A DNA stretch of 64,000 bases from positions 769 through 64,768 of the IMG/VR virus record IMGVR_UViG_3300033489_000009; one strand, given 5' to 3'. Shown here piece after piece: positions 14,714 to 36,766 of this stretch; the first letter of the stretch is position 1; each line of letters starts with the position of its first letter. This DNA comes from a virus. Under the pieces are notes generated by a model. It ran no database searches, was not told the DNA's origin, and was given only the letters and a program-made list of their open reading frames with translations. A program made the position numbers and the translations under genes.

Positions 14714-14776
14714 TGTTGATCTTCTTTCGGTTGGTGGTCCCCGGGTAGCGGGTTCGCTCCCGGACGATTGCTGGGG

Positions 14777-15532
14777 TCAGGCGGGCCGGTCTCGGGAGCG
14801 GGCGGCGGCGTATCGGGTTCGGAGTTCGCCGGGGCCGACCCGCTGCTCGCCGTCCGCAGACGGATCGGGGGCGGCGGTGGGCCAGAACGCGGGCTGGGTT
14901 GCGACCGGCCGCGCAGCGGCCTGGTCAGGTGGCGGAGAAGGATCCGGCCTGGAGGCTGTGGATGACGCAGGTGACGTACTCACCTGAGGTGATTGGTCTT
15001 GTGTGGTGGGAGTTCTGTTGGAGTAGTTCTTTAGCCCCCCATCCCGTGGGGGGCTAAGCCCCCCATCTGGTGACGGGCTGCGCCCCCCGTTGAGTGGGGG
15101 GCAACTTTCTGCGGTGTCACCCGGTTGCCCCCGACCGGATGGGGGGCAACTCCCGTTATCCACAACCTGTTGCCCACCAACAGACGGGGGGCAACTCCCC
15201 TCCTCGGAATCCGGGTTGCCCCCGACCGGATGGGGGGCAACTCCCGCGAAGAGCCTCAGCCGGTACTCCGCGTTCCGACCGTTCCCGGCACGCCGCTTCA
15301 CGACGATCGCGCCAGACCGCACCAGATGGCCGACCGCGTTCTCGACACGCCTGAACCCGGGCTCGGTATGCGGGGCGCCCAGCACGTCGGCCAGTGCTTC
15401 CCGGCCGCCGTAGTAGACCAGCTCCGGGTCGTCGTCGCGGCAGAGGTTCGCCATGAAGGCGAGCAGACGCCAGGACCGGTCAGGCAACTGTGCCCAGCGA
15501 GCGCATACGGCAGCCACGTTGGCCCTTCCCAT
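14777..15532 (-). CDS. Replication initiator (N-terminal winged HTH, internal iteron repeats)
   Basis: RLLAFMA...YYGGREALAD.LG...VENAVGHLVRSGAIVV...G..AEYRL; repeat region encodes SCPP units. Confidence 0.75.
   Translation of the reverse strand: MGRANVAAVCARWAQLPDRSWRLLAFMANLCRDDDPELVYYGGREALADVLGAPHTEPGFRRVENAVGHLVRSGAIVVKRRAGNGRNAEYRLRLFAGVAPHPVGGNPDSEEGSCPPSVGGQQVVDNGSCPPSGRGQPGDTAESCPPLNGGRSPSPDGGLSPPRDGGLKNYSNRTPTTQDQSPQVSTSPASSTASRPDPSPPPDQAAARPVATQPAFWPTAAPDPSADGEQRVGPGELRTRYAAARSRDRPA
15033..15245. repeat. Putative replication origin: palindromic iterons with a DnaA box
   Basis: GGGGGGCAACT at 15096, 15141, 15186 and 15232 (45-46 bp period); identical 32-mer GGTTGCCCCCGACCGGATGGGGGGCAACTCCC at 15123 and 15214; TTATCCACA at 15156-15164. 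Confidence 0.8.
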
Positions 15533-15612
15533 CAGTAGCCCACCAGGACGGTGTGCACGGCGGCGGGATCCCTTCTCGGGGACGGAGATCAGGGGCGGAC
15601 GCTCCGGCAGCG

Positions 15613-21521: not shown

Positions 21522-22379
21522 ATGACAGCCCGAGACCTGGGGGCCGCTGTCATCACCCGGTTCCTCGACGACAGCCGGGCACGCGGTCTCTCCACCGACG
21601 GAACCCTCCCCGGATGGCGCCGCACCCTCGACGCCCTCTCCCGCTGGGCCGACCAGCCCGTCCTCTACCTCACCGAGGACCAGCTCCGCGCCTGGGCCCG
21701 GGAACGGGCGAAGGAGATCCTCCCCCAGACCCTCCACGGCTACGTCGTCTGCCTCCGCGCGTTCTACTCCTGGGCGGTCCGCACCGGCCTCCTCTTCGAG
21801 AACCCGGCCCTCGCCCTCGAGCTACCCCGCCTGCCGAAACGCACCCCAGACCCGATCACCGAACGGGCGTACAGCCTGTGCGTCGACACCGCGCCCCTGG
21901 ACCTCGCCGCCTGCTACGGCCTCGCCGGGTTCGCGGGTCTGCGCGCCTGCGAGGTCGCCCGCCTCGCCTGGCCCGCCGTCCGGTGGGCCGAGCAGATGCT
22001 CCGCCTCGACGGGAAGGGCGAGGTCGAGCGGGTCGTGCCCATGTCGACGCCGCTCGCCGAGCTCCTCATCCGCCTCCCCGTCCGGGCCGCGGCCCGCCGG
22101 GGGCCGGTGATCCGCCGCCGCGACGGCCAGGCAGGCCACAACCGGCCGCACACCATCTCCCAGACCGCGAACACCTGGCTGGCCGACCACGACATCCCCT
22201 GGACGCTCCACAAGATGCGGCACCGGTTCGCCACCAGACTCCTCGACGAGGGCGCCGACGTCCGCATCGTCCAGGAGGCCCTCGGCCATGCGTCCCTATC
22301 GAGCACGGCGATCTACACGAAGGTCCGCCCAGAGCGGCTCCGGGCCGCGATCGAAGCAGCCGGCCGGATCATCGCCTGA
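21522..22379 (+). CDS. int: Tyrosine integrase lacking an N-terminal arm-binding domain (285 aa)
   Basis: GLRACEV (Arg), GKG (Lys), HKMRHRFAT (HxxR), LGH and AIY (Tyr) catalytic set. Confidence 0.93.
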   Translation: MTARDLGAAVITRFLDDSRARGLSTDGTLPGWRRTLDALSRWADQPVLYLTEDQLRAWARERAKEILPQTLHGYVVCLRAFYSWAVRTGLLFENPALALELPRLPKRTPDPITERAYSLCVDTAPLDLAACYGLAGFAGLRACEVARLAWPAVRWAEQMLRLDGKGEVERVVPMSTPLAELLIRLPVRAAARRGPVIRRRDGQAGHNRPHTISQTANTWLADHDIPWTLHKMRHRFATRLLDEGADVRIVQEALGHASLSSTAIYTKVRPERLRAAIEAAGRIIA

Positions 22380-23279: not shown

Positions 23280-23924
23280 ATGCCCAGCCGCGAGCGTGGA
23301 GTGACCCGCCCTGGTGAGCCTGCACGAATGCCGGCCGCCGGGCGGGTCTGCGGTCAGGATCGGGGTCCCGCATCCTGTGCGGGACCGGTCTGGGCCCGCG
23401 GCTTGTGCCGCCGCCATTACCGGCAGCAGGCCCGCGGCGGCGTGGTCGACGCGGGCGAGCGGGCGGTCGGGGCGCCGTCCGGACATGGCCAGTGGGGGAT
23501 CGTCGACGTCGACGAGGGTGACGGCGGGCGTCTGGTCTGCCACGACTGTGGCCGAACCTTCATTGCACTTGCTGTCCACATCGGGATGGTTCATGACGAC
23601 GTCCACCCCGGCGGGGTCCGTGAGTACAGGCTCCGGCACGGACTCCCGATGAGCGTGTCGCTCATCGCCCGGGATCTGGCCGCGAGGCTGGCTGAGGCGG
23701 CCCGCCCCGCGGCCAGCCGCCTGGCCGCGGTCAGGTCCCCGGACACCCTCGGCGCCCCGCAGGAAATGGTCACGCGTGGACTACGGCTGTCCCGGAGGGT
23801 GGGGCGTCCTCGACCGGATCGGTATCCCGCGATGCCACGAATTGGACCGGAAGCCCTGCGGCCGGTCCCGGACGGCGGTCCCGTCACGCTCCATCCGCGC
23901 GAGTCCCCCGACCACGTCTACTAG
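23280..23924 (+). CDS. MucR/Ros-like zinc-finger regulator
   Basis: N-terminal C..C..ARGLC..HY finger; LVCHDCGRTF..L..HI...H....VREYRLRHGLP..VSL. Confidence 0.7.
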   Translation: MPSRERGVTRPGEPARMPAAGRVCGQDRGPASCAGPVWARGLCRRHYRQQARGGVVDAGERAVGAPSGHGQWGIVDVDEGDGGRLVCHDCGRTFIALAVHIGMVHDDVHPGGVREYRLRHGLPMSVSLIARDLAARLAEAARPAASRLAAVRSPDTLGAPQEMVTRGLRLSRRVGRPRPDRYPAMPRIGPEALRPVPDGGPVTLHPRESPDHVY

Positions 23925-24026
23925 CGAGGCGCCGATTGCGTTTGCGGCGACTGATGCTCCCGTGGACCGCCTCCGATCGGCCCGCGCCGGCAGCCATTCC
24001 CAGATCCTCGCCTCCAGGTCATCCAT
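23781..24026 (-). CDS. Small winged-HTH-like protein, last gene of the Cas operon
   Basis: GGAGG RBS; MDDLEARIWEWL...ANAIGASLVDVVGGLARMERDGTAV...WHRG. Confidence 0.55.
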   Translation of the reverse strand: MDDLEARIWEWLPARADRRRSTGASVAANAIGASLVDVVGGLARMERDGTAVRDRPQGFRSNSWHRGIPIRSRTPHPPGQP

Positions 24027-24031
24027 GGCGT

Positions 24032-25045
24032 CTACCTCCAATCCCCTCGATCGTCGACCCGGACGGATGATGTCGCGGCACGCCGGGACCCCTTCACGAA
24101 TATCAGCGTGTGCTGGTGGCCTCGGCCGAGGCTCCGGCCGGTGCGCATCGCGTGATAGCCGCGCATCGCAGACGTCCCGCACGGTGGGATCAGGACCGCT
24201 GCCGACACCAGATGAAGCCCGGCATCCTCGAATGCGCGGATCGCCATGCCACGCAGATCGATCAGACGCCCATCCCGGGCCCGCACGTCTCCGATGACGA
24301 GGCCCGCGAACCTGTCGGCGCGCAGAGCGCACGCAGCGCCGTCGACGATCCGTCTCAGTGCTCGCTCATACTGATCCACGGTCATGGTCGACAGGTCGGC
24401 CGGATCGTCCGAGTACCTCTCCGTCCAGAGGTAGGGGGGGCATGTCCACACGAAGTCGACGCTGCCCGGATCCAGGGAATCGACCCACCGCGCTGCGTCG
24501 GCGTGCGCCCACTCCGCGGATGTCAGCGAGGGGATCCCTCGCATCGCCAGCTCGGCGCAATGGGCGCGGTTGGCCTCGACCTGGGCTGCCGAAAGATCAC
24601 ACCCGATGTACCGGCGGCCGATGACCGCGGCGACGACTCCCCTGGTGGGGCCCCCGGCGAACGGGTCCAGGATCAGCCACCCCGGCGCCGTCCACCACCG
24701 ATACGCCAGCTCGCACAAGACGGGATCGAATTGGCTGGTCCCGGTGCCGAACGCTCCGCCACCAGCCATGGAAGCCGACTGGCGGTACTGATCGGCCTCG
24801 AACTCGGCGGCCGTCAGATCCCTCCCTGCGGCATCCTTAGCCGCCTGAAACTGCTGGTAATAGCTCGGGTCACGGCTAGTCGCGGTCGACAGCAGGAGAC
24901 GCCCCGGTCGCCCGACACTCGGATCGAGCCCGATGGCAAGCCACTCCTTCCGGCGCGCCTGCCACTTCCCGCGCCGCTGATCGAGCAGGTCGAACGGCGG
25001 CAGGCCGGACAGCCGATCAGTGGCCGAAGGGATCGCAGCGCTCAC
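24032..25045 (-). CDS. SAM-dependent amino-methyltransferase (probably DNA m6A/m4C)
   Basis: TSQFDPVLCE..YRWW, ILDPFAGGPTRG, YIGCDLS and WTCPPY...Y motifs. Confidence 0.85.
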   Translation of the reverse strand: MSAAIPSATDRLSGLPPFDLLDQRRGKWQARRKEWLAIGLDPSVGRPGRLLLSTATSRDPSYYQQFQAAKDAAGRDLTAAEFEADQYRQSASMAGGGAFGTGTSQFDPVLCELAYRWWTAPGWLILDPFAGGPTRGVVAAVIGRRYIGCDLSAAQVEANRAHCAELAMRGIPSLTSAEWAHADAARWVDSLDPGSVDFVWTCPPYLWTERYSDDPADLSTMTVDQYERALRRIVDGAACALRADRFAGLVIGDVRARDGRLIDLRGMAIRAFEDAGLHLVSAAVLIPPCGTSAMRGYHAMRTGRSLGRGHQHTLIFVKGSRRAATSSVRVDDRGDWR

Positions 25046-25767
25046 CTAGGGGTCCTGTCGAGGCGGTCCCGCACGGAGCGGACCTCCGGGTAGTAGGTGT
25101 CCTCCCAGTCGCCGCGTCCATACTCGGCGCCTCTCGACCCACCCAGAGAGGACACCCGCAGCCGATCTCGAGGTATGACCCCACCGAATGACATTGCATA
25201 GGCGGGATGAAGTGGAAGGTCGTGCAGTGCCGCGTACGCCCACACGTCGGCAGACCTCCACCTGATGATCGGCCTGCATGATGTCGCCGTTACTACCCCG
25301 TGGACCGCAGCTGACATCCCGCGCGCCCGCGACTCGTCGGCCCGGAGCCCGGTGATTCGCCTCGGGCTCTCATGCTCCTCCAGCCACCGGTACGGGTTCG
25401 GGCTGGCGATCCCGTACTCACGGTAGGGGGTTGGCCACCGCGCGAGGTAGGCGTCGGCGACGGACTGGCAGTCCGGGTTGCGTAGCCTGTCCGTCCCTTC
25501 CCTGGCCCCGTATGTGACGTATATCAGCTCTATGTCTAGGTCGCGGGCGAGGTGAGCGACCGTGACCGAGTCGCGACCCCAGGAGACTCCGATGTGACAG
25601 GGACCGGCGGCGGCAAACCCTGCGATGCAGGTATGGGCTGCCTCGGCGAGCCGGTCCAGCCTGCGAGCGATGTGGGACGCCCGGACGGTGGCCGCGTCGT
25701 ATCGGGCCAGCCTGGACCACACGGCCCGGTCGTCGCCGGTGAGCCGCGGCGAGTCGATGAGAGCCAT
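25042..25767 (-). CDS. cysH: CysH-like (PAPS reductase family) protein of type IV-B systems
   Basis: PP-loop SWGRDS, ITGLRADESRAR, RPIIRW..ADVWAY...HDLPLHPAY. Confidence 0.88.
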   Translation of the reverse strand: MALIDSPRLTGDDRAVWSRLARYDAATVRASHIARRLDRLAEAAHTCIAGFAAAGPCHIGVSWGRDSVTVAHLARDLDIELIYVTYGAREGTDRLRNPDCQSVADAYLARWPTPYREYGIASPNPYRWLEEHESPRRITGLRADESRARGMSAAVHGVVTATSCRPIIRWRSADVWAYAALHDLPLHPAYAMSFGGVIPRDRLRVSSLGGSRGAEYGRGDWEDTYYPEVRSVRDRLDRTPR

Positions 25768-26492
25768 CAGACGGCCATCCCAGGGGTGACGGGCATCTTG
25801 CGGGTGCCATGCCAGTAGGGGGCCCTGACTGCGCCCGGGACGCCGCGCCCGACGGGGGCCGGGAAGTCGCGGTTCATCCATGCGTCCCGGTCGGCGGGGC
25901 CACCCTCCTGGACCTCGACCTTGAGGACGCGGCCGTTCCCGTGCCCGGTGACCCGGCCGAGGGCCCGGAGCCTGGTCAGGAGGCTGGCGGTGGCGTCCTG
26001 GTCGCCGAGCGCCCACCACGTGACATGGGTGACGAGACGCCCCGGGTAGGTGATGTTGCGGGCCTTGTGCGCGCCGAGCCCATCATGATGCCGGGCATCG
26101 GTCGTGTATCGGGCGTACTCCTGGGTGGGTGGCTTCTTGCGGATCTCGACGGCGGTGGTCCCGTGCTCGGTAAGGACGGCCCGTGAGCAGCACCAGCCCC
26201 ACACGGTGCCGTCGGCGGCAAGCAGGGCCGGATTAGTGCCGGCCGGTGCGGGTCTGGTCCAGGTGGCCAGCGGGACCCTGAAGTCCGCGCACCGGTCCAC
26301 GGTGAGCGGCGGCAGCACAACCCCGGACTCGCGGGCAGCCAGGTAGGCGCAGTACGCGAGCGGCCCGTCCAGATGCATCGGGTCCGCGACAGTGATCACC
26401 GGGTCGGCGATCGTGGCGACCACCCGGAACGGCCGCCACGCCGGGGACGCCACCGTGTCGGCGACATCCCCGACGCGCACGACCCTGCTCAC
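25767..26492 (-). CDS. csf3: Type IV Cas5-like subunit Csf3
   Basis: HLDGPL, W..S.A, and a C-terminal G-loop LGRVTGHGNGRV...W...R..P...RAPYWH. Confidence 0.85.
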   Translation of the reverse strand: MSRVVRVGDVADTVASPAWRPFRVVATIADPVITVADPMHLDGPLAYCAYLAARESGVVLPPLTVDRCADFRVPLATWTRPAPAGTNPALLAADGTVWGWCCSRAVLTEHGTTAVEIRKKPPTQEYARYTTDARHHDGLGAHKARNITYPGRLVTHVTWWALGDQDATASLLTRLRALGRVTGHGNGRVLKVEVQEGGPADRDAWMNRDFPAPVGRGVPGAVRAPYWHGTRKMPVTPGMAV

Positions 26493-27406
26493 GCCCGGAC
26501 CTGCAGCAGCGCCCGGATCGCGTCAGCGTGACCACTCAGGTGGTCGACGTACCGGGCCGCCGCCGCGGACACGTCGCCGGTGAGCTCGGAGGTGTCGGAG
26601 GACACGACAGCGCACCGGCCGAAACCCTGCGCGCCCCTCGCTCCCAGCCGCCACACGCCGCCCGCAGTGACCCGGGTCAGGGCCGCACACAGGGCGTCGA
26701 CCTCGGCAGGGACCGCCGCGTCGACACCGACCTCGAACGCCCACAGGGACCCCGCCTGGATCACCTGCATGTCGTAGATCATCTGCGTTGATGCGGGAGC
26801 TGCATCCCCGAACATGGCCTCCGCGACCAGCCGGTCCACCGAAGAGCCGGTCACGTCGTGGCGGGTCCCGAACTCTTCCCCCATCCAGTCGACCGCGCGC
26901 ATCCCGGCGGACGGGTCACGCATCACGGTGGCCGGGATCCGCCACTCATTCTCCCGGCAGGCCAGGTGCGCGTTGGATACGCGGAGGCTGCCGCGGACGA
27001 TGTCCGACCCCAGCGAGTAGCCGAGCAGCGGCAGGGACGGCAGGAGCGTGTGCCGCTCCGCCATCGCCCGCAGGTCGGTTTGTGCGCCGGTCTCCGTCAA
27101 TGCCCCACCGGACCACAGGAGGTCGACGATCGCCTTCGGGAGACCGTTGTCGGGGACCTGCAGGGTGTCGACGGTGATCCAGGCGAGGGCATCCCGGATG
27201 GCGTGCCGGATCGAGTTGCCGGACACGAACGGGGTGCGGCGACGCTCCCCGTCCGGGCCGACGGAGTCCTGCATGCGCACCAGGGCGGTGTTACCGGCGG
27301 TGCCTGCGCCGTGGTGGATCGGGTCGAGGGCGCGGAGGGTGACGGGGATGCGGGCCGTGACGGTCCGCTGGTAGGTGCCGGCCCCCGCCTCGATGGTGGC
27401 AGTCAT
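26489..27406 (-). CDS. csf2: Type IV Cas7-like backbone Csf2
   Basis: LDPIHHG..TAGNT..R, PFVSGNSIRH.IR, LWSGGAL, LPLLG, QMIY..Q....G and LGARGAQGFGRC G-loop. Confidence 0.9.
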   Translation of the reverse strand: MTATIEAGAGTYQRTVTARIPVTLRALDPIHHGAGTAGNTALVRMQDSVGPDGERRRTPFVSGNSIRHAIRDALAWITVDTLQVPDNGLPKAIVDLLWSGGALTETGAQTDLRAMAERHTLLPSLPLLGYSLGSDIVRGSLRVSNAHLACRENEWRIPATVMRDPSAGMRAVDWMGEEFGTRHDVTGSSVDRLVAEAMFGDAAPASTQMIYDMQVIQAGSLWAFEVGVDAAVPAEVDALCAALTRVTAGGVWRLGARGAQGFGRCAVVSSDTSELTGDVSAAAARYVDHLSGHADAIRALLQVRA

Positions 27407-27852
27407 CAGAACATGGCTCCTGTGTCGTCGGTGGCTGCGGGCGCTGCGGATGTCTTGGTGGCCTTGTCGGCGCGCTTGTCGGCGCGGCGGAGACGCACCA
27501 TCGCCGCGATGTAGACGGCATCCCTTTCTGCGATCCGGCGCCACCGGGCGAACGTGACCGGGTCGGCCAGTGCGGCCTCGATCCCGGCGACCGTCCGGCC
27601 TGTGTGCTCAGGGAGTGTCGCCACCTGCAGTTTCCCGGACATGACGGTGACCATGTCCCGGATGCTGGTGGCGCGCGCTGCCGCAGCGGTCAATGCCGTG
27701 GTGGCGCGCGGCCACCAGTGGGCGACACCGATCGTCGCGACGTCGGCGGCGCCGAGCATCGCGTCGAGCATGTCCTCGGCGACGACAGCGAGAACGTCGT
27801 CGGGGACGTTGGGTGGGAGCCGGTCAGGCCGCGTAGCGGTCGGCGAGGTCAC
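27406..27852 (-). CDS. cas11: Type IV-B small subunit Cas11
   Basis: 148 aa all-helical protein (HWWPR..TAL..AAARA) between csf1 and csf2, the canonical IV-B position. Confidence 0.7.
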   Translation of the reverse strand: MTSPTATRPDRLPPNVPDDVLAVVAEDMLDAMLGAADVATIGVAHWWPRATTALTAAAARATSIRDMVTVMSGKLQVATLPEHTGRTVAGIEAALADPVTFARWRRIAERDAVYIAAMVRLRRADKRADKATKTSAAPAATDDTGAMF

Positions 27853-28561
27853 GGATGGTCTCCTTCGTGGTCATGTGCAGCGCGAGCTGCAGTAGAGGTG
27901 AGTTGGCGTGTGGTGCGACCGTCGGCGACCAGCGCCGCCATGCGGTCAGCCCGTCCCTGGTCAGGGCCGGGACGGTTGGGGTGACGGCGTGGATACTGTC
28001 CGGGTTGTGTCCAGCGAGGCGTAGCGCGGCGCATGCCCCGATCAGAGCCCCGTACTCGGTGGGGGTGGCGTCGACGACGCATCCCTCGATCCGGGCCAGG
28101 ACCAGGGCCGCGCCGGGCGCGTTGACGGGCGTGTACGGGAGGAGGTGTTTCTGGCCTGAGACGGCGATCGTGACCGCCCATACGTCGTCCGGGGGGTCCG
28201 TGAGTGCGGCGATGATCGCGGACTGGTCCTTGCGGTTGCAGAGGTGTAGCCGGCCATCGGATGGGTATGGGGCGGATGGTGCCCCCGTCGGGAGGATGGT
28301 GGCGGCGGTGGTGAGGATCGACCACATCCGTAGTGTCTGCGGCGGTTTCCCGGCGAGGGCCCACGCGCACGGCTCGCACACCGTCGACAGGTCCGGGCGG
28401 GCCGCGGTGAGGATGTCGAAGTTCTTGCCGAGCGCATCCCGCGCCCGTAGGTGCCGGTGGTGGGTCACCCCGCACACCACGCACCCGGCGTCGGCGGCGA
28501 TCGCCTTCGGGTGGGATGGCCCACCGGCTGCGTCCCACGCCATCCGGACCGCCGTCAGCAT
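27824..28561 (-). CDS. csf1: Type IV large subunit Csf1 (Cas8-like)
   Basis: CVVCG...LG.NF...CEPCAWAL.GKPP.TLRMWS and W.V.IA.SGQKH.LPY..VN motifs. Confidence 0.85.
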   Translation of the reverse strand: MLTAVRMAWDAAGGPSHPKAIAADAGCVVCGVTHHRHLRARDALGKNFDILTAARPDLSTVCEPCAWALAGKPPQTLRMWSILTTAATILPTGAPSAPYPSDGRLHLCNRKDQSAIIAALTDPPDDVWAVTIAVSGQKHLLPYTPVNAPGAALVLARIEGCVVDATPTEYGALIGACAALRLAGHNPDSIHAVTPTVPALTRDGLTAWRRWSPTVAPHANSPLLQLALHMTTKETIRDLADRYAA

Positions 28562-29238
28562 GCCGGCACCTGGGCTGGCGCTGGGCGGGCGAGGATGAGA
28601 CCGCACCCGAAACTCTTGTTCCGGCCTACACCCTCGGCCATGAGCGCGTGCATGGCCGGCTCGTCGCAGACCCGGCCCTCGAATCGCAGCAGTGTGTGAT
28701 TCGAATGCTGGACCCGGCCCTCCTTCACCCTGCGGCCGGTCAGGTGCCATGCCCCGGCCATGGTCACGTCGAGCCCGTCGAGGATCCCCGCGAGCCTGCC
28801 CGCCAGCACCTCCACCATCGCCTCCGGCGGGCGGACCGTATGCCGCCGTTTCTCCGACCGGGCGGAGAGTTTCCCCGGGATCTGCCCTGCCGCGACCAGC
28901 TCGCATTCCCGGACCCACTGACTGTGCGACTGGCCTGACTGGCCTGAGTCCATCACGACGGCCCCCGATATCAGGGCCCCGGCGGTCGGCCACCAGTACG
29001 GGCTGTGGGTGGTGTTGATCGCCCACCCTCGGGGCCAGTCCTCACGGGTGATGGGCCGGTCGTGGCGGACGATCAGGACCCTCGGCTTAGGTATGGCCCA
29101 CAGGACGGGCCGGGGCTGCTCCCCAGCGAGGGCGGCCTGGGTGACCAGGTCGTGGAGATGCTTGACGTCCGCCGACCGGGGATCCCGGTCGGTGATCTGC
29201 ACCGTGGTGAGTATCAGTGGGCTTCCTATCGTGTCCAT
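28555..29238 (-). CDS. cas6e: Cas6 (Cas6e-like) RAMP endoribonuclease
   Basis: N-terminal D..HLH, VLW, and C-terminal RFEGRV.D..AM..LM.EGVGRNKSFGCGLI G-loop. Confidence 0.85.
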   Translation of the reverse strand: MDTIGSPLILTTVQITDRDPRSADVKHLHDLVTQAALAGEQPRPVLWAIPKPRVLIVRHDRPITREDWPRGWAINTTHSPYWWPTAGALISGAVVMDSGQSGQSHSQWVRECELVAAGQIPGKLSARSEKRRHTVRPPEAMVEVLAGRLAGILDGLDVTMAGAWHLTGRRVKEGRVQHSNHTLLRFEGRVCDEPAMHALMAEGVGRNKSFGCGLILARPAPAQVPAC

Positions 29239-29240
29239 GG

Positions 29241-29519
29241 TCAGTTCCCCTCATGGCCGTGCTGGTGTCGGTCGCGCCACGCCTCTAGCTCCACTACGCG
29301 GTCCTCGATGGACGGCGGAGGGACAGGTGCTGCCCGCTGGCCCCGGTACGCCTCGACGTCTCCGCGGCGGTACCGGCGGTGGCCGCGGCCGCGCGCGCCC
29401 CCGGGCGTCTGCGAGTAGGGCAGCTCACGTCTGGGGATGCGCCAGACGGTGACTGGATCGACCTGTAGCAGCTTGGCGACTTCACCGGTGCTGAGGGTCT
29501 CGTCGTCGGTGGCGGGCAT
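29241..29519 (-). CDS. MerR-like/excisionase-type (BldC-like) HTH regulator heading the Cas operon
   Basis: LSTGEVAKLLQVDPVTVWR...TPGG...HRRYRRGDVEAY; AAGGAGAGG RBS. Confidence 0.85.
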   Translation of the reverse strand: MPATDDETLSTGEVAKLLQVDPVTVWRIPRRELPYSQTPGGARGRGHRRYRRGDVEAYRGQRAAPVPPPSIEDRVVELEAWRDRHQHGHEGN

Positions 29520-29537
29520 CCCTCTCCTTGGGATCAG

Positions 29538-29635
29538 TGCAAGGTGTGTGCTGGTCGCAAGGGTAGAGGGAGCGGCATTCACGTCGACATCATCGCGCGC
29601 CCCGTGCAAGCCTTGCAAGGGGTGAAAGGTGTGTG
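29538..29635. promoter_or_regulatory. Divergent control region with repeated (T/C)GCAAG motifs
   Basis: TGCAAGG at 29538, CGCAAGG at 29556, inverted repeat TGCAAG-C-CTTGCA at 29605-17 flanked by CCCC/GGGG; AAGGTGTGTG at 29541 and 29626. Confidence 0.6.
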
Positions 29636-29683
29636 TCAGGATCGTCAGGTGACTTCTCCCGACCGCCTGGCTGGTGGTGCCGC

Positions 29684-30420
29684 GTGACCGTCCCCGCCCT
29701 GCAGCTCGCCGACGTGTGCGAGTCGTGCCGGCAGTGCCCCGGCACCCGGTGGATCCTCGGAGGCGACGGTGAGTCGCCGTTCCTGGTCTGCCAGGGCTGC
29801 GCACCGACCCCCCTGTCAGCCTCCGTCCCGCCATCCCCCAGCACGGTTCCCCCGGCCGTGCCGGCGGGGCGGAGGCCCACCAACCAGACCGCCCGGGCCG
29901 TCGCGATCCAGGCCGCCGGGATCAGCACCGTCGGCGTCAGCCTTTGGGCGCTGACCCGCATCGCCGGCGGCGGCACGCTCCTCGTCCTCGGCGCGGAGGC
30001 CAGCGTCCTTTGCCTCGGCTACGCCGCCCGGGCGTTCGGTGGTGCCAGGTGATCCGGGTCATCGCCGCGGCCGCGGTGTTCGTCGCCGGCTGGCTGGTCC
30101 TCGCGACGCAGGGGGAGGCGATCGCGGCGGCCCTTGAGCGGATCGTGCTGGTGCTGGTCGCAGGCGCCGCTGCCCTCACCGTGATCGTCGTCGGTGGCGT
30201 GGTCCTGGTCCGCCGTCTGGTCAGGCCGAGCGAACAGCCGGCACCGCAGGTCCCGGATCACTCCCAGGAGCTCCCAGCGCTGGGAACTGACTGCGCTCGT
30301 GGCTGCGGCCGACCGGGGACCGTGCTGCTCGCCGGGGCCGGTTCCCTGCCGTTTCTGGTCTGCCAGCGGTGCGCCGACGTGCACACCGGCCGCGTCCAGC
30401 CCCGCGGAGCGCGGCCGTGA
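29684..30420 (+). CDS. Two coupled membrane proteins with a shared Zn motif (29684-30052, 30049-30420)
   Basis: Both have hydrophobic helices and a C..C...PFLVCQ.CA motif; GTGA overlap. Confidence 0.6.
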
Positions 30421-30427
30421 ACCGGCT

Positions 30428-30561
30428 CGTTCCGGAAGTACTCATCCGGAACGGCTGCGTTGTGGCGCCGGATCGGGGAGCGCGTCCTGCACCGATGCCG
30501 TTCCGGATGTCCGTTCCAGCCGTCCGGCCGTCCCGATCGGCTCCCGCCCACTTCCGGAACG
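30428..30561. other. Putative res site of the serine resolvase
   Basis: CGTTCCGGA-AGTACTCA-TCCGGAACG inverted repeat (30428-53); half-sites at 30499, 30512 and 30553; directly upstream of the resolvase. Confidence 0.7.
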
Positions 30562-30580
30562 ACAGCGAGGGGGATCTCAG

Positions 30581-31390
30581 ATGACCATGCTCGGCTACGC
30601 CCGCGTGAGCACCACCGACCAGGACCCTGCCCCGCAGGTCGCGCAGCTGCGCGCCGCGGGCTGCGACCGGGTCTTCGTCGAGTCGGCGTCCGGGTACCGC
30701 GATGACCGGCCCGAGCTGGCCGCGCTCCTGGACTACGCGCGGGACGGCGACGTGATCGTCATCTGGCGCCTCGACCGACTCGCCCGCTCCACCACCCACC
30801 TCCTGTCGCTGTCCGCCGATCTCGACAAGCGCGGGATTGGGCTGAAGTCCCTGTCCGACCCGATCGACACGACCTCGGCGACGGGCAGGTTGGTCTACAC
30901 CCTCCTGGCCGCGATCGCCCAGTTCGAGGGTGACCTGCGCCGGGAGCGCCAGCAGATCGCGTGGGAGGCCGGGAAGCCGAAGGGCCGCCCACCGACGCTG
31001 ACCGGCGGCCAGCGCGACCTCGCCGCCCGGCTCCGCGGTGAGGGCAAGTCGCTGGCCGAGATCGGGCGGGCGGTCGGGGCGCCGAAGACGACGATCCACC
31101 GGCACCTCACCGCGCTCCTGGCCGTGATCAGCGGCCGGCGCACCGCCCCGCTCGCCGTGTCCCTGCTCGCGTTCGCGGTGCTCGCAGGGTTTGGCGTCGT
31201 CTCGATGCTTGCGGTCGCTGCCGGCGCGACGTCGCCGCTGCTGCTGCCCGGGCTGGTGGCCACCGCGCTGACGATGCTGGTCTTACAGGGCTGCACCGCC
31301 AGTGCGCCTGCCGGGGCGCGGGGGCCGGTGAGGGTCCGTCCGCCGGTCCGGATCCGCCCGATCATGCCGATGGCGGTGGCCTGGTCATGA
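30581..31390 (+). CDS. Serine resolvase/invertase with HTH and a C-terminal two-helix hydrophobic extension
   Basis: GYARVST.DQ, RPEL, WRLDRLARS, GRPP and HTH, followed by LAVSLLAFAVLAGFGVVSMLAVAAG and LLLPGLVATALTMLVL. Confidence 0.9.
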   Translation: MTMLGYARVSTTDQDPAPQVAQLRAAGCDRVFVESASGYRDDRPELAALLDYARDGDVIVIWRLDRLARSTTHLLSLSADLDKRGIGLKSLSDPIDTTSATGRLVYTLLAAIAQFEGDLRRERQQIAWEAGKPKGRPPTLTGGQRDLAARLRGEGKSLAEIGRAVGAPKTTIHRHLTALLAVISGRRTAPLAVSLLAFAVLAGFGVVSMLAVAAGATSPLLLPGLVATALTMLVLQGCTASAPAGARGPVRVRPPVRIRPIMPMAVAWS

Positions 31391-32178
31391 CGACTCTGCG
31401 CCTGTCCGACCGCTCCCGCTGGCGTGCGGCACGCACCTTGCAGGACCTCGCCGACCTCACCGCGGCGTGGCTGGCTGGGGAGATCCGGTCGCAGCCCGGC
31501 TACTACGGCCGCGTCGATGTCGACGAGGACCGGGCGCCCGGGCTGACCGCCGCGCTGGTGGCCTGCAACAGGGCCGGGTTCCTCACCCGCACCTCCCAAG
31601 CGAGTTACGTCGGGCCCGGCTACCACGGCGCCACCCGCGCGACCGCGCTGGCCGCCGTGCACGGGTACACCGACAGGGACACCGCCCAGCGCCTGTTCTC
31701 GGCGTCCGTCTGGGCCCCGACCCGGGTCCACGTGTTCATTCACCCCATCGGGGCCGGCCGCCTTGGCGAGGACGCCCGTGAGGTGTCGTGGGCTGACGAC
31801 AGGGCCACCTGCTCATTCGGGGGCTGCGTACCGGTCGGCTACCTGCTGGACGAGTTCGCCGGCTGCTCCCGGCACGTGATCGACGCGCTCGCGCACGCAT
31901 GGTCAGTGACGGTCCTCGACCCGGAGCCGGGCCGGAACACGCTCTGGGCGTGGCTCGCCGAGGCCGTGCCTGCGCTCGCCAAGGGCGCCCGGCCAGTCCC
32001 CATCTCCGGCCACCGCGTGCCCGAGTATCCAGACCGGTGCGGATGCGGCGGGATCCTCCGGCCAGCCGACAGGCCGATCTTCGCTCCCGACGGCGGGGCG
32101 CACCTGATCCTCCGCTGCGATCACTGCGGGATCCAGACCCCGATGGACTGGACCTGGCAGCCAGGGGTTGATCGGTGA
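31387..32178 (+). CDS. DUF6919-like protein of actinomycete plasmids/AICEs
   Basis: W..ARTL.DL..LTA.WL.G....QPGY...L...NRAGFLT..SQ, and C-terminal V..IDP..GRN..LW..L-like motif. Confidence 0.65.
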   Translation: MTTLRLSDRSRWRAARTLQDLADLTAAWLAGEIRSQPGYYGRVDVDEDRAPGLTAALVACNRAGFLTRTSQASYVGPGYHGATRATALAAVHGYTDRDTAQRLFSASVWAPTRVHVFIHPIGAGRLGEDAREVSWADDRATCSFGGCVPVGYLLDEFAGCSRHVIDALAHAWSVTVLDPEPGRNTLWAWLAEAVPALAKGARPVPISGHRVPEYPDRCGCGGILRPADRPIFAPDGGAHLILRCDHCGIQTPMDWTWQPGVDR

Positions 32179-32753
32179 TGGCCACCAGCAAGCACCGGAA
32201 GCCTCCCCGGACCCGGACCACGAAGCGCCGGGGGACGACCAGCACCCGTCTCGTCAAGCCCCGCCGCAAGCGGACGGCGGCCCGCAGTCAGAGGGTCGCG
32301 AACTTTTCCCTCTTCAACATCAACTTCGGCGGTACCGGAAGCGGCCGCGGACGGCGCAAGCGCCGCTTCCAGGGCTTCCTGAAGGGCCTGTTCAAGACCG
32401 GGCGGGAGGTCGGCAAGGGGGTCGGCCGGCACATGCCGCAGGCCGGGTGCCTGAACAGCCCAGGGTCCATCCAGAAGGCTGCGGCCCGTACCGGTGGGCG
32501 GCGGCAGCCCAGCAGAGTCACCGGCGCCGGGGCTGGGGCTGCGGCCACGCTCAGCGCGCGCCGCGGGAGCCGGTCGCCTAGGTCGCGGTTCGCCGCGTCC
32601 ATGCCCGGGGCTGGGGGCCAGGCCGGCACGGACCCGCTGGACACCGACGAGGCGATCGAGAACTGGACCGAACGGACGGGCGAGGCGCCCGGCGGGGCCT
32701 GTCCCTGCGGCGGGATCGCACGACACACCGCTGACTGTGAGGTCTGGCAATGA
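32175..32753 (+). CDS. Basic hypothetical protein
   Basis: Arg/Lys-rich ORF coupled between the DUF6919-like gene and traB. Confidence 0.55.
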   Translation: MMATSKHRKPPRTRTTKRRGTTSTRLVKPRRKRTAARSQRVANFSLFNINFGGTGSGRGRRKRRFQGFLKGLFKTGREVGKGVGRHMPQAGCLNSPGSIQKAAARTGGRRQPSRVTGAGAGAAATLSARRGSRSPRSRFAASMPGAGGQAGTDPLDTDEAIENWTERTGEAPGGACPCGGIARHTADCEVWQ

Positions 32754-34957
32754 ACCTGGACGCGGCCAACGGCCACCACGACGGCAGCGCCCTCGATCTC
32801 GAGGAACGCCTCGAGGTCGACGCCCACGACCTGAAGGATTCCCTCGCCCACGAGCCCGGTCACGGTCTGACCGCCGGGGACCTGGAGGCCGGGCAGGTCG
32901 AGGAGGCGGCCGAGCAGGGCCCGGCCGTCGACCCGCCCGCCCGGCGGTCCGCGGCGGTGGACCGGATCCGGGCAAAGGCGGATGCGCGGCGCCGGCCTCT
33001 GGTCCCGGAGTGGATGGCCACCCAGGTCGGCCGGCGCACGGTCACCCGGATCGCCGCGTCAGCGGCCTGGCACTGGACGCTGTACCGGGTGGTGCACCTG
33101 GTCCCGGACCTGGGGCTCCTCGCCTGGTATGCGGTCGTGGGTGCGGGCCGGTTGGCGTGGGGGTCGGTCCAGTTCGTGGGTGACGGTGAGGCGCGGCCGC
33201 TGCGGAAGTCGGCGATCCTGTCCGACGACCACAAGGCGTACATGCTGCTGGTCCGGGAGCGGAACGCTCGGATCTCCCGCCGGCTGGCCGGCGCGACCAC
33301 CCTCGGGCTCCTCGCCCTGCTGGCGGCCGGCCTGCTCGTGTGGCTGGCGCCCGGCTGGCTCACCGGCCCCGTCACGGTCACGGCGGTCATCGGCCTGGTC
33401 CGCGCTGGCCGACCGGTGGGACGGCCGATCCTGTCCCCGGCGACCGTGAAGTCCACGGTCCCGCGGCTGACGTCGGTGGCGATCGTCCGGGCCCTGGCAG
33501 GGGTCGGCATCGGACCGCTCACCACGGGCGCGGCGAAGGGCGAGACGGCCGAGTGGTTCCCCGAGCCGATCACCAGGACCGCCGTCGGCCATGAGGTCGG
33601 GATCGAACTGCCGCACGGCACGACCGCCGCGGAGGTCGCGGACAAGCGGGAGAAGCTGGCCGCCGGTCTGCGCCGCCCGATCGGCTGCGTGTGGCCGATG
33701 GGTGAGCCGCGGGTCCACCCGGGGCGGCTGACCCTGCACGTCCTGGACGCCCCGATGTCGAAGATGGCGCAGCCGCCGTGGCCGCTCGCGAAGACGGGGC
33801 GGTCCGACGTGTTCAAGCCGATCCTCCTCGGCTGGGACCAGCGTGGACGGCCGGTCACCGTCCTCCTCATGTTCTCGAACCTGCTGGTCGGGTCGATCCC
33901 GAGGCAGGGCAAATCGAGGACGGTCCGGGTCCTCATGCTCGCCGCGAGCTTCGATGTCACCTGCGAGCTGCACGACCACGAGTTGAAGGGCACCGATGAC
34001 GACTCGATGTTGGAGCCGTACCTGCACCGGTACACGACCGGCTCCGGGTCGACCGACACACCGGCGATCGAGTCGGTGATGGCCTCGATCCGGGAGGTCG
34101 CCGGCTACCTCGATCCGCGGGCGAAGACGATCGCCCGGGTCTCCCGGGAGAACCCGGCGCGGTGCCCGGACAAGAAGGTCACCCGCGAGCTCGCCGACGA
34201 CCCGGCCCTGAAGTTGCACCCCGTGATCCTGAAGATCGACGAGGTGCACGAACTTTTCGAGACCGAGTTCGCGGCCGAGGCCGAGCAGAAGCTGACCGCG
34301 ATCATCAAGCGTGGCCCCGCGCTGGGGATCATGCTGATCCTGGCCACGCAGCGGCCGGACGCGAAGTCGATCCCTACGGCGATCTCGGCGAACGTTGGCC
34401 TGCGGTTCTGCCTGCGGGTCGGCGGGTGGAAGCCGAACAACCTCGTCCTCGGGGACGGCGCCTACGCGATGGGCATGCGGGCCGACCTTTTCACCGAGGA
34501 CGACAAGGGCTGCGGTCTGCTCCGGGACGGTGGGACGACCGCGCAGACCGTCCGGGGCGCCGACATCGACGGCCCGGACGCGGAGCCCATCGCCCGCCGC
34601 GCGCTGGCTATGCGCACCGCGGCAGGGGTGCTGTCCGGGGATGCGGTCGGCGAGCGCATCGAGCTCGAGCGGGACCAGCTGGAGGTCGTCTTCGACTGCA
34701 TCCGGGTCTTCCGGGACTGCCCCAGCGCCGACGAGTCTGTGTGGCTGCACCAGCTGGAGGAGCTGCTCGCGGAGTGGGCGCCGAGCGAGTACGGGGACCT
34801 GGAGGCACCTTGGTTGGGGGACCGGCTCCGCGCGCTTGGGATCCCGACGATGGCGCAGCGGAAACGGAACATCGACGGGGAGCAGGTCAACCGTGCGGGT
34901 GTGTCCCTGGCGGTTCTTCGGAAGGCCGTGGAGGGCCGCGAGGACGAGGGTCGGTAG
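32750..34957 (+). CDS. traB: TraB-like FtsK/SpoIIIE conjugative DNA translocase
   Basis: N-terminal TM segments, Walker A GSIPRQGKS, Walker B LKIDEVHELF, LATQRP, RFCLRV, and a C-terminal wHTH-like domain. Confidence 0.88.
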   Translation: MNLDAANGHHDGSALDLEERLEVDAHDLKDSLAHEPGHGLTAGDLEAGQVEEAAEQGPAVDPPARRSAAVDRIRAKADARRRPLVPEWMATQVGRRTVTRIAASAAWHWTLYRVVHLVPDLGLLAWYAVVGAGRLAWGSVQFVGDGEARPLRKSAILSDDHKAYMLLVRERNARISRRLAGATTLGLLALLAAGLLVWLAPGWLTGPVTVTAVIGLVRAGRPVGRPILSPATVKSTVPRLTSVAIVRALAGVGIGPLTTGAAKGETAEWFPEPITRTAVGHEVGIELPHGTTAAEVADKREKLAAGLRRPIGCVWPMGEPRVHPGRLTLHVLDAPMSKMAQPPWPLAKTGRSDVFKPILLGWDQRGRPVTVLLMFSNLLVGSIPRQGKSRTVRVLMLAASFDVTCELHDHELKGTDDDSMLEPYLHRYTTGSGSTDTPAIESVMASIREVAGYLDPRAKTIARVSRENPARCPDKKVTRELADDPALKLHPVILKIDEVHELFETEFAAEAEQKLTAIIKRGPALGIMLILATQRPDAKSIPTAISANVGLRFCLRVGGWKPNNLVLGDGAYAMGMRADLFTEDDKGCGLLRDGGTTAQTVRGADIDGPDAEPIARRALAMRTAAGVLSGDAVGERIELERDQLEVVFDCIRVFRDCPSADESVWLHQLEELLAEWAPSEYGDLEAPWLGDRLRALGIPTMAQRKRNIDGEQVNRAGVSLAVLRKAVEGREDEGR

Positions 34958-35060
34958 TGGCTGTCTGCCCTACCGGTAGGGGTGCCTCTACCACCCGGCC
35001 CTACCGGTAAACCCGCAGGTCAGAGGCCATTTCAAGCAAGATCGCAGACTGGTAGGGCAG
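34953..35060. repeat. CTACC/GGTAG repeat cluster downstream of traB
   Basis: Palindrome CCCTACCGGTAGGG (34968-81), CCCTACCGGTA (34999-35009), further CTACC/GGTAG copies. Confidence 0.6.
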
Positions 35061-35100
35061 GGGTCGCGCAGGGCCCCGAAACCGCTCCTGGAGGGGAATC

Positions 35101-35337
35101 GTGCACGTGCTCGTTTTGGCCGCTACCGCTACCGGCGTCGTCGTCGTGCTGGCCGCCGGGTACCTGGGGTGGTGCTGGCTGGTCCCCGGGTACACCTGCC
35201 ACGCTTGCGGCGGTGGCGGGTCTCGCCGGACGCGGATCCTGGGCCGGGAGCGGACCTGCCGGTCGTGTCGGGGGGTCGGTGAGCGGCCCCGGCTGGGCAT
35301 GTATGTGCTCCGCGCGTTGCGGGAGGGGAGCCGGTGA
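35101..35337 (+). CDS. Small membrane protein with CxxCxGxG zinc finger
   Basis: TM helix then CHACGGGG...CRSCRGVG; typical of genes following traB in AICE-like elements. Confidence 0.65.
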   Translation: MHVLVLAATATGVVVVLAAGYLGWCWLVPGYTCHACGGGGSRRTRILGRERTCRSCRGVGERPRLGMYVLRALREGSR

Positions 35338-36470
35338 GTGTGTTGTCGTTGCCGAGGCGTCGGGTGCCCCTGGAGACCGCACGTCGGCTGGCCGGCCAGC
35401 TCGACCGGCCCCAGCCGGCAGATGATCGGGCGAGGCGTCGGCTGGCCGAGGTCGCTTCCCGCGGCGGGACGTGGGCGATGGTCGTGCCCGTCGTCCTGGT
35501 CAACACGTTCGCTGGGATCGGGCAGACGCTGTGGGCGATGGACCACATCTCCCCGGCGCTCGGTGTGCCCGCGGTGCTCACTGCGGTCGGGTTCGCGGCG
35601 ACCCTGGAGTCGATCGCCGTCTACCTGGCCTACCAGGCGCACCGGGCGCTGATGGCCGGTGATGCGGCGCTGCGGCTGCGGGTCGCCTCGTATGCGGCTG
35701 CCGGGACGGTCGGGGCGTTGAACTACTCCCACTGGTCGGCCGACTGGCAGCCGACCGCGGTGGCGATCACGTACACGGGGTTCTCGGTGATCTCGCCGTG
35801 GCTGTGGTCGATCCAGTCGAGGTCGATGCACCGCGCCGAGCTGCGGGCTGAGGACCTGATCGACCCGAGGACGGTCCGGTTCTCGATGGCCCGGTGGACC
35901 CTGTATCCGGTCCGGACGTTCACCGCGTTCCGGGCCGCGGTGTGGGCTGGGGTGGTCGATCCTGCGGTGGCGATCCGGCTGGCCGATCGAGTCGATCCCG
36001 TCCGGTCGATCGACCCCGATCCGGGGGTGTCGATCGAGGCCGGGCACCCCGATCGGATCGACCCCGACATCGAGTCGGCGGCCGTCCCGGATCGGGTCCG
36101 GATCGAGGCCTCGATCGAGTCGATCCAGTCCGCTGCGGATCGACCCGCCGGACCGCCGGTGATCGAAGCTCCGAAGTCGATCGGATCGACCCCGATCCCG
36201 GCCGGGAGATCGACCAGGAAGAAGCCGACCCGGCAGCCCCGGACGGTCGATCAACTGGCCGTCGAGTTGGCCGCTGAGATCGAGTCGGGTGGCCTCGATC
36301 TGGCACCGTCGGCTGAGGCGATCCGGCGGCGGCTCAAGTGCGCTCCCGCCACTGCCAGGGAGCTGCGGGATCGGCTCGCGAGTGGGGACGCTCCAGCCGG
36401 ATCGGCCCCGGTGTTGGAAGTTACCGACGACGCTCCAAGCGCGACCCAGGAAGGAACACTGACCCCATGA
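35334..36470 (+). CDS. DUF2637 / Spd-like membrane spread protein with C-terminal HTH
   Basis: Four TM helices, ES.A.YL..AH.AL..GD.A..LR.ASY, GALNYSH; C-terminal PSAEAIRRRLKCAPATARELRD. Confidence 0.75.
   Translation: MSVLSLPRRRVPLETARRLAGQLDRPQPADDRARRRLAEVASRGGTWAMVVPVVLVNTFAGIGQTLWAMDHISPALGVPAVLTAVGFAATLESIAVYLAYQAHRALMAGDAALRLRVASYAAAGTVGALNYSHWSADWQPTAVAITYTGFSVISPWLWSIQSRSMHRAELRAEDLIDPRTVRFSMARWTLYPVRTFTAFRAAVWAGVVDPAVAIRLADRVDPVRSIDPDPGVSIEAGHPDRIDPDIESAAVPDRVRIEASIESIQSAADRPAGPPVIEAPKSIGSTPIPAGRSTRKKPTRQPRTVDQLAVELAAEIESGGLDLAPSAEAIRRRLKCAPATARELRDRLASGDAPAGSAPVLEVTDDAPSATQEGTLTP
35850..36255. repeat. Dense GATCGA/TCGATC repeat cluster inside the spd-like gene
   Basis: More than a dozen copies of GATCGA or TCGATC (often GATCGACCC) in about 400 bp, in both orientations. 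Confidence 0.75.
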
Positions 36471-36766
36471 CCCAGCACACGCCGCTGCCAGGACCGATCG
36501 CCGTAGACCCGTACAGCGAGCTCCTTGACCTAGCGAACGCCCAATCCCCGGGCGGTGACATCACCCCGGCCGGGGAAGTGGCCCGGGCCATGCTCGGCGC
36601 AGCCCTGGACGGGATCCAGGTCGGCTCCTACGACGAGCAGGTCATCGCGTGGCTGCAGGGGCGGGATGCGTCGACGATTGCGGTGGTGGCGTCGTTGTTG
36701 CGGCGGGCGTGGACGGCGGGTCTGGCGGCTGGGCGGATGGAGATCCGGGAAGAGCGGACCCGCTGA
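36467..36766 (+). CDS. Hypothetical protein typical of actinomycete plasmids
   Basis: GSYDEQVIAWL...DASTIAVVASLLRRA motif; AGGAAGGA RBS. Confidence 0.6.
   Translation: MTQHTPLPGPIAVDPYSELLDLANAQSPGGDITPAGEVARAMLGAALDGIQVGSYDEQVIAWLQGRDASTIAVVASLLRRAWTAGLAAGRMEIREERTR

Follow-up and report, generated by a model that had tools for sequence, protein, structure and literature searches.

A type IV-B CRISPR-Cas operon with a Cas6e-like gene on a temperate actinophage, and the association of its lineage with host type I-E systems

The stretch of DNA analyzed here (the window) spans 64,000 nucleotides, positions 769 to 64,768 of the IMG/VR virus record IMGVR_UViG_3300033489_000009. Judging from its genes, it carries a complete type IV-B effector operon, of the CRISPR-Cas kind (short palindromic repeats, clustered and regularly interspaced, with their associated proteins), on a temperate actinophage. 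The operon belongs to a lineage of phages and prophages whose standard layout is cas6e-csf1-cas11-csf2-csf3-cysH, with or without a winged-helix gene and a methyltransferase gene. All seven isolate genomes found with this lineage also have a type I-E system, and in five of them the host arrays target the resident IV-B element. We slightly favor the explanation that the lineage acts on the CRISPR RNA (crRNA) of the host I-E system and blunts I-E interference. We found no account of a Cas6e-bearing IV-B lineage in the literature searched and, as far as that literature goes, the link of this lineage to type I-E is new.

The virus record is a single contig of 64,944 bp with about 70% G+C, from a soil metagenome, and the window covers nearly the whole of it. 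No RNA sequencing run was found to contain this DNA. The genome encodes a portal, a head protease, a major capsid protein, a tape measure protein, and a large terminase, together with a tyrosine integrase (21522-22379), and hence we regard it as that of a temperate tailed phage. No near-identical DNA was found in the phage collection. The Cas operon lies within the lysogeny region, 1.4 kb from the integrase. It consists of nine minus-strand genes (23781-29519), flanked by the integrase region and by a plus-strand resolvase/FtsK-like module, and they are given here in operon order after the upstream intergenic region (aa, amino acids):

29520-29683, no strand: intergenic region from which the Cas operon and the plus-strand module diverge, presumed from the gene layout to hold the promoter
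29241-29519, minus strand: HTH_17 regulator, excisionase/BldC-like, first gene of the operon (Pfam HTH_17, E 2.9e-8; NCBIfam BldC-like, 8.6e-7)
28555-29238, minus strand: predicted Cas6e-like endoribonuclease, 227 aa (PF08798, 36.6 bits for a cut-off of 25; PADLOC Cas6e, 8.5e-10, and typeIV_Cas6, 3.4e-9)
27824-28561, minus strand: Csf1 large subunit, 245 aa, with a four-cysteine zinc ribbon and an SGQKH motif (PADLOC Csf1_0_IV, E 1e-20)
27406-27852, minus strand: Cas11 small subunit, 148 aa (PADLOC typeIV_Cas11, E 6.2e-11)
26489-27406, minus strand: Csf2, the type IV Cas7 backbone subunit, 305 aa (PADLOC typeIV_Cas7, E 3.8e-79)
25767-26492, minus strand: Csf3, the type IV Cas5, 241 aa (PADLOC Csf3_0_IV, E 7e-29; TIGR03116, 6.7e-16)
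25042-25767, minus strand: CysH-like PP-loop enzyme (CasCysH), 241 aa (PAPS_reduct, 1.4e-8; phrog_2302, 1.3e-20)
24032-25045, minus strand: predicted amino-methyltransferase dependent on S-adenosylmethionine, 337 aa, its start overlapping the cysH stop in GTGA (phrog_12517, 6.7e-76; phrog_498)
23781-24026, minus strand: small winged-helix protein, 81 aa, modeled as three helices plus a beta wing (AlphaFold, H-H-H-beta-beta, mean predicted local distance difference test [pLDDT] 79)

The gene assignments rest on profile matches, except that of the winged-helix protein, which rests on a structure model. Adjacent genes overlap or are separated by no more than 5 nt; in operon order, the junctions are a 2-nt gap, ATGCTGA, a 29-nt overlap, TGATG, GTGA, TGATG, GTGA, and 5 nt with a ribosome-binding site. 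At the start of the HTH_17 gene, AAGGAGAGGG is followed by the ATG at 29519. A preliminary description of this DNA, made from its letters, had read a minus-strand set of helix-turn-helix (HTH), cas6e, csf1, cas11, csf2, csf3, cysH, and methyltransferase genes followed by a small winged-helix gene. All of these are present, with junctions as described, and the profile searches that it had proposed (Csf1, Csf2, Csf3, Cas11, Cas6e, PAPS reductase, and methyltransferase) matched the proteins to the expected families. Some coordinates required correction. Csf1 is encoded at 27824-28561, in a frame that differs from the longest open reading frame (ORF) at the same place; the frame at 27849-28538 is a spurious arginine-rich ORF, and the Csf1_0_IV match lies in the true frame. 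The corrected starts are 27406 for Csf2, 25767 for CysH, and, for the winged-helix protein, the ATG at 24026 behind GGAGG. Scanning the operon for sigma-70 consensus promoters and intrinsic terminators gave nothing informative.

This gene content is that of type IV-B: Csf2, Csf3, Csf1, and Cas11, with an adjoining cysH and with no array, no DinG or RecD helicase, and no effector nuclease. In Csf1, the cysteines C27, C30, C62, and C65 are kept in at least 90% of 60 homologues. The presence of Cas11 separates types IV-B and IV-C from IV-A, and IV-B is usually described as lacking Cas6 (PMC7038947, PMC8175902). Here, a Cas6e-like gene is the second of the operon and the norm in the clade, and we therefore class the system as a variant of IV-B rather than its textbook form. 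Scans with Pfam, PADLOC, and NCBIfam-type profiles gave no helicase or nuclease family match among the nine operon genes. The absence of a repeat-spacer array, already reported from the letters, was upheld: searches of the window and of the remaining 944 bases of the genome turned up no CRISPR array, no Rfam CRISPR repeat, and no solitary I-E-like repeat, and an Rfam scan of the whole window gave no match at E up to 1.

The Cas6e-like protein aligns with PF08798 over almost all of the model (residues 22-219 against positions 19-223 of 223), and this family also scores the IV-B-linked copy above the cut-off in 10 genomes and is on record for the closest relatives. A profile of the Cas6e-like family matches Cse3 of Thermus thermophilus (2Y8W) over its full length (E 5e-22), aligning His29 of the window protein with His26. 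This catalytic position is at least 90% conserved in the family alignment, where a C-terminal glycine-rich loop, GxGxxKxxGxGL, is invariant. The protein thus shares the catalytic histidine, the LW and NP motifs, and the glycine-rich loop with the type I-E enzymes of T. thermophilus and Escherichia coli (CasE). It differs from them in scoring weakly on the I-E equivalog TIGR01907 (20 bits, cut-off 45), in being encoded beside Csf rather than Cascade genes, with no cognate array on the element, and in the position of Tyr23 of Cse3, which is not conserved (Lys26 in the window protein). The IV-B-linked Cas6e is a divergent one with its catalytic histidine retained.

How general is this arrangement? 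We found 187 homologues of Csf2 at E up to 1e-5, mostly in metagenomes and Actinomycetota. With iterated hidden Markov models (HMMs), we then surveyed 67 Csf2-anchored loci from IMG/VR, GTDB genomes, metagenomes, and encoding contigs. Collapsing these loci at 90% Csf2 identity gave 34 clusters, 31 of them with enough upstream DNA. A Cas6e-like gene stands directly upstream of csf1, as the first gene, in 29 of these 31, the others being a Kofleriaceae metagenome-assembled genome (MAG) and a Csf2 fragment. CysH is found in 33/34 clusters, the winged-helix gene in 14/34, and the methyltransferase in 12/34. The HTH_17 gene has a single member, that of the window. The preliminary description, which had proposed such a survey, presented Cas6e and the methyltransferase as additions made by this phage. 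The counts argue otherwise on both points: the Cas6e-like gene is the norm of the clade, and Cas6 in IV-B was already on record as "12 instances" (PMC7038947), whereas the methyltransferase is accessory, present in some loci only, and comes from a phage family that is widespread.

The search for an RNA partner encoded by the elements themselves was negative. No array or I-E-like solitary repeat was found in any of the 67 IV-B loci, and no mini-array, solitary repeat, or conserved hairpin near the relatives. Gaps of about 400 nt between cas6e and csf1 in ten loci carry ORFs, not RNA. The gap gene encodes a protein of about 135 aa with a zinc ribbon and a LuxR/GerE-type HTH (at 4100-4499 in L007, 1140-1539 in L022, 559-940 in L024, 2215-2617 in L055, and in others), and loci L003 and L023 have a different cysteine-rich ORF of about 165 aa in the same gap. 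The window Csf2 had one weak match among phages, Skermania phage SPI1 (27.7% identity), and none among plasmids. The Csf2 profile found no match in 400 other Actinomycetota genomes, and the clade is rare in genomes.

The isolates with the clade are Phytoactinopolyspora limicola, a Frankia symbiont, Corynebacterium ulceribovis, Corynebacterium sp. MSK041, Brevibacterium otitidis, Scrofimicrobium canadense, and Nocardiopsis lucentensis. All seven, and one MAG, encode a canonical I-E Cas6e (195 to 242 bits) elsewhere in the genome. In 7/7 isolates, the full cas3-cse1-cse2-cas7-cas5-cas6e-cas1-cas2 set is present with all ORFs intact, accompanied by typical I-E arrays of 8 to 100 repeats. As background, canonical Cas6e was found in 19/400 sampled Actinomycetota genomes, in 8/80 genomes of the family of the corynebacterial host, and in 29/80 of the family of the Nocardiopsis host, i.e., a range of 5 to 36%. 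Against the highest of these values, 7/7 gives a Fisher p of 0.0014, a figure uncorrected for phylogeny. The co-occurrence is opposite in direction to the published negative correlation between IV-B and I-E (PMC7038947).

The arrays of five of the seven isolates target the resident IV-B element; in the other two, the array or the IV-B contig is broken by assembly gaps. The most striking case is C. ulceribovis DSM 45146 (G003), which has a complete I-E system whose array counts 100 repeats, each 28 to 29 nt long (L149, G003:C2:487000-506900). About 30 of its 99 spacers match its own chromosome, mostly at 32 of 32 positions, and all matches outside the array fall within C1:1065535-1107948, one 42-kb integrase-bounded prophage that carries the IV-B operon. 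The protospacers include sites inside cas6e, csf2, csf3, and the methyltransferase gene. The protospacer-adjacent motif (PAM) is AAC or AAG in 17/19 protospacers, the strand bias is 16:3, and the self-targeting spacers cluster at the leader-proximal end. Together, these are marks of primed I-E adaptation. In S. canadense WB03_NA08, 8 of 28 spacers are directed against the resident IV-B element. Corynebacterium sp. MSK041 has about 6 self-targeting spacers (AAC or AAG in 3/5), P. limicola has 5 (5/5), and B. otitidis has 1 (1/1). In published surveys, 7 to 18% of genomes with CRISPR contained self-targeting spacers, which amounted to 0.4% of spacers (PMC6990116). The preliminary description had suggested that guides are taken from host I-E transcripts; this part finds support, which comes from these relatives. 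As a separate observation, three of the self-targeted elements share an ORF of 160 to 178 aa, which lies immediately upstream of the cas6e-like gene in C. ulceribovis (G003:C1:1098813-1099292) and about 3 kb upstream in B. otitidis (G404:C46:107769-108254) and S. canadense (G405:C55:143824-144357).

What do the targeted elements have in common? When the five self-targeted elements and the window phage were compared by BLASTP (E <1e-6), the only protein families common to all were the Cas6e-like protein, Csf1, Csf2, Csf3, and CysH; the methyltransferase was common to four.

The near-universal CysH-like protein has some peculiarities. Its gene starts within an overlap with the csf3 stop, and its PP-loop reads SWGRDS, for a consensus SWGKDS that is at least 93% conserved in 54 homologues. 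It has no cysteine beyond residue 165, i.e., the C-terminal catalytic cysteine of true CysH is missing, and this agrees with the published description of CasCysH as a PP-loop protein without the C-terminal cysteine (PMC8175902). The winged-helix protein has 27 homologous ORFs, which lie before cysH, after cysH, or fused to the C terminus of CysH. Fusions were found in L035 (11619-12590), L037 (11837-12760), and L038 (4618-5628), where CysH is 307 to 336 aa long. From this placement and these fusions, we regard the winged-helix protein as a partner of CysH. In the window, unlike in the fused closest relatives, the methyltransferase gene sits between the two.

The methyltransferase is more difficult to place. 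In METHYLTRANSFERASE, motif I, DPxxGG, is invariant in the family (DPFAGG in the window) and precedes an invariant motif IV, CPPY, with cysteine where the (D/N/S)PPY class has D, N, or S. Pfam N6_N4_Mtase scores above its cut-off, but over 42 residues only, around motif I. PHROG and PADLOC label the relatives as DNA methyltransferases. The nearest structures to the AlphaFold model (pLDDT 85) are the tRNA m2G (guanine-N2) methyltransferases Trm11, TrmN, and Trm14 (VIA-align, Z 17.5 to 18.8, root mean square deviation 2.1 to 2.8 Å). The four nearest solved folds are all of this kind and score slightly higher than generic Rossmann methyltransferases (Z about 16); the top 50 structural matches include no classical DNA methyltransferase. 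Foldseek against the PDB returned generic Rossmann methyltransferases only (TM about 0.45). IMG/VR holds more than 528 phage relatives; the best 80 loci of these include no Csf gene, and the family is therefore not Cas-specific. In IV-B loci, the gene always adjoins cysH, on either side, often with overlapping stop and start codons. A quick maximum-likelihood tree places the 14 IV-B-linked methyltransferases on one side of a branch, with weak support (SH-aLRT 80), and 0/500 label shuffles were equally clustered. A complex prediction for CysH and the methyltransferase scored 0.00, which is not evidence either way. An N6-methyltransferase is shown among IV-B neighbors in a figure legend of Shmakov et al. 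(2018). The phage encodes a second, larger DNA methyltransferase (553 aa, phrog_116) elsewhere in the window (11112-12773).

Why should an element without an array keep a Cas6e? Since there is no array, the Cas6e-like RNase would have to act on hairpin RNA made elsewhere, and the host I-E CRISPR transcript is the best candidate for this RNA. The phage Cas6e could bind or cut the I-E repeat hairpins, and the RNA would then be passed to the Csf1-Cas11-Csf2-Csf3 backbone. I-E interference against the phage or prophage might thus be weakened, either because crRNA is diverted or because matching protospacers are occupied or marked. A nucleic-acid-modifying output could come from CysH, a PP-loop adenylating enzyme, acting with its winged-helix partner and, in loci that have one, with the methyltransferase. 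An intact system that tolerates self-targeting with correct PAMs is classically taken as the mark of an anti-CRISPR on the targeted element, and in five host genomes the relatives persist despite just such spacers. We favor the blunting of I-E because the cassette is the common denominator, contains an RNase of the I-E-repeat family, and brings no RNA source with it. Our inference that the tolerance is due to the cassette itself, and in what manner, is drawn from association, i.e., from its being the sole shared gene set.

A more specific version of this explanation would be that Cas6e captures host I-E precursor crRNA and that the Csf complex uses it to find the matching phage protospacers and to shield or mark them against Cascade-Cas3. 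Shielding could come from occupancy or from a modification dependent on CysH or the methyltransferase. Each newly acquired host spacer would then program its own antidote, making a self-updating anti-CRISPR. This would explain why the R-loop machinery is complete yet free of nucleases, why there are no arrays, why Cas6e and CysH are universal, why the hosts are restricted to those with I-E, and why priming continues without killing. We consider it a tentative idea, with a low probability of being right in this form.

Several points weigh against a role in blunting I-E. All the I-E evidence comes from relatives with Csf2 40 to 48% identical to that of the window. The sample is seven genomes, picked for carrying IV-B, with no correction for phylogeny. 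The tolerance could have its cause in a small, separate anti-CRISPR encoded by each prophage. Primed acquisition has continued in C. ulceribovis, so Cascade-crRNA must still form and a complete crRNA sink is unlikely; the continued priming fits attenuation or target protection better. Zhou et al. (2021) found that I-E crRNA was not enriched in the Csf complex of Mycobacterium strain JS623, a member of a distant clade without Cas6e (PMC7937560). In the work of Pinilla-Redondo et al., IV-B overall was negatively correlated with I-E, and an anti-CRISPR of several subunits was considered unlikely (PMC7038947). Finally, the near-universal CysH is left unexplained by this model.

The cassette may have nothing to do with host CRISPR. 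It could assemble on phage or cellular RNA and deliver CysH or methyltransferase chemistry, with Cas6e processing a phage hairpin RNA and small anti-CRISPRs (Acrs) accounting for the tolerance. Prophages often carry small, fast-evolving Acrs that sequence comparison misses, and these would also escape a test of shared gene content. In JS623, the complex was found to bind heterogeneous RNA (PMC7937560), and strong hairpins form a cluster private to the window at 15033-15250. This hairpin was found nowhere else, however, and no conserved hairpin or mini-array lies near any relative. The fixed I-E-family Cas6e of the clade and the presence of I-E in all isolate hosts would be left without explanation, and the cassette remains the sole gene set common to the five self-targeted elements. 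We thus give this alternative a real but minor chance. At the other extreme, the link to I-E might be incidental, the host system being silent or inactive as in E. coli K-12, the self-targeting spacers harmless, and the co-occurrence a matter of host range. The small sample, the lack of phylogenetic control, and an I-E frequency of up to 36% in one family would all be compatible with this. Yet bursts of leader-proximal spacers that combine correct PAMs with a strand bias can arise only if Cascade, Cas3, and Cas1-2 are active, and all cas ORFs are intact. In C. ulceribovis, only the IV-B prophage is matched and nothing else in the genome, and the 7/7 hosts stand against a background of at most 36% (p = 0.0014). 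Hence, we regard an incidental link as very improbable.

The same guides could also be turned against third parties. The cassette might pirate host I-E crRNAs against competing phages and plasmids, silencing or marking them without a nuclease, in the way of type IV-A transcriptional interference. A full Cascade-like complex is conserved, the I-E co-occurrence fits, and the operon lies within the lysogeny region. Type IV-A3, which employs a Cas6e-like enzyme and is correlated with I-E, provides a precedent for silencing in which no nuclease takes part (PMC7038947, PMC11519345). Nevertheless, the host I-E system and Cas3 already use these guides, so the benefit to the phage is unclear, and the tolerance of 30 self-targeting spacers would go unexplained. 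We find the silencing of competitors unlikely, and our preference stays with the blunting of I-E interference.

Some other features of the window deserve mention. A 900-bp gene-free gap (14699-15612) contains six strong G/C hairpins (15033-15250), three of which form a 36-nt repeat with a spacing of 45 to 46 nt. On the plus strand, the fold z-score is -7.2. The hairpins do not resemble I-E repeats and have no Rfam match. The hairpin repeat at 15120-15246 was considered as a shared Cas6e substrate and set aside, as no copy of it was found in IMG/VR or in 34 loci. Near this gap, a minus-strand ORF (14094-14411, 105 aa) consists almost entirely of tandem repeats of 12, 30, and 42 nt (G+C at third codon positions 0.99), i.e., a low-complexity repeat protein. 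The plus-strand module that diverges from the Cas operon (29684-36766) encodes a serine resolvase (30581-31390), a DUF6919 protein, an FtsK/SpoIIIE TraB-like translocase (32750-34957), and a DUF2637 protein. Such modules are typical of actinomycete conjugative elements, and this one lies inside a tailed phage genome.

The function of type IV-B systems is a long-standing open question, and the sole biochemical study used a plasmid locus without Cas6 and found no specific RNA. The window represents a separate, mainly phage-borne lineage with a fixed Cas6e, with I-E in every isolate host, and with self-targeting arrays that fail to eliminate the element. This offers the field a candidate RNA partner, the host I-E crRNA, and a candidate role, the countering or redirecting of I-E immunity. 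It also offers a culturable test strain, C. ulceribovis DSM 45146, with its approximately 30 self-targeting spacers. A Cas-derived, multi-subunit anti-CRISPR or RNA-guided protective modifier, if such it is, would be a new class of counter-defense and possibly a programmable, nuclease-free marking tool.

The comparison with known systems begins with the IV-B locus on plasmid pMYCSM02 of JS623 (PDB 7JHY, PMC7937560), the only IV-B system studied biochemically and a member of a distant plasmid clade. It shares with the window Csf1, Cas11, Csf2, Csf3, a CysH-like gene, and carriage on a mobile element. Neither has an array, a helicase, or a nuclease, and the Csf2 profile of the present clade matches the JS623 Csf2 (7JHY) at E 1.7e-21. 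Csf2 identity between the two clades is nonetheless at most 28%, and the present clade resides on phages and prophages with cas6e first. No gene for a Cas6e-like protein, a methyltransferase, or a winged-helix protein occurs within 6 kb at the JS623 locus (L165, NC_019958.1:178722-191099), where cysH belongs to a divergent operon of three genes, the other two being uncharacterized (294 and 140 aa). Another relevant case is the IV-B system of Fuxivirus, a virus of Bathyarchaeia, which is also virus-borne, includes CysH, and has been proposed to interfere with host immunity or rival elements. It differs in its own two-repeat mini-array, its Cas4, and its archaeal host, and no Cas6e was reported for it (PMC10848311). 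Type IV-A3 resembles the present system in combining a type IV effector with a recruited I-E-family Cas6, and it shows a positive correlation and functional cross-talk with host I-E and interference without a nuclease (PMC7038947). However, IV-A3 comes with CRISPR arrays of its own and with a DinG helicase but without Cas11 and CysH, whereas the present system has neither array nor helicase.

Prophage anti-CRISPRs offer a functional parallel. There, too, an intact type I system with many perfect spacers and correct PAMs fails to remove the resident elements, and the counter-measure acts at the stage of the crRNA or the effector. RNA anti-CRISPRs made of solitary repeats were reportedly described by Camara-Wilpert et al. 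in 2023. In Xanthomonas albilineans, 24 self-targeting spacers revealed anti-CRISPRs encoded by prophages (PMC10810201). The Acrs known so far are small proteins acting singly or RNAs that resemble repeats; here, by contrast, the candidate has no repeat mimic and would be a Cas-derived ribonucleoprotein, encoded by nine genes and equipped with enzymes of its own.

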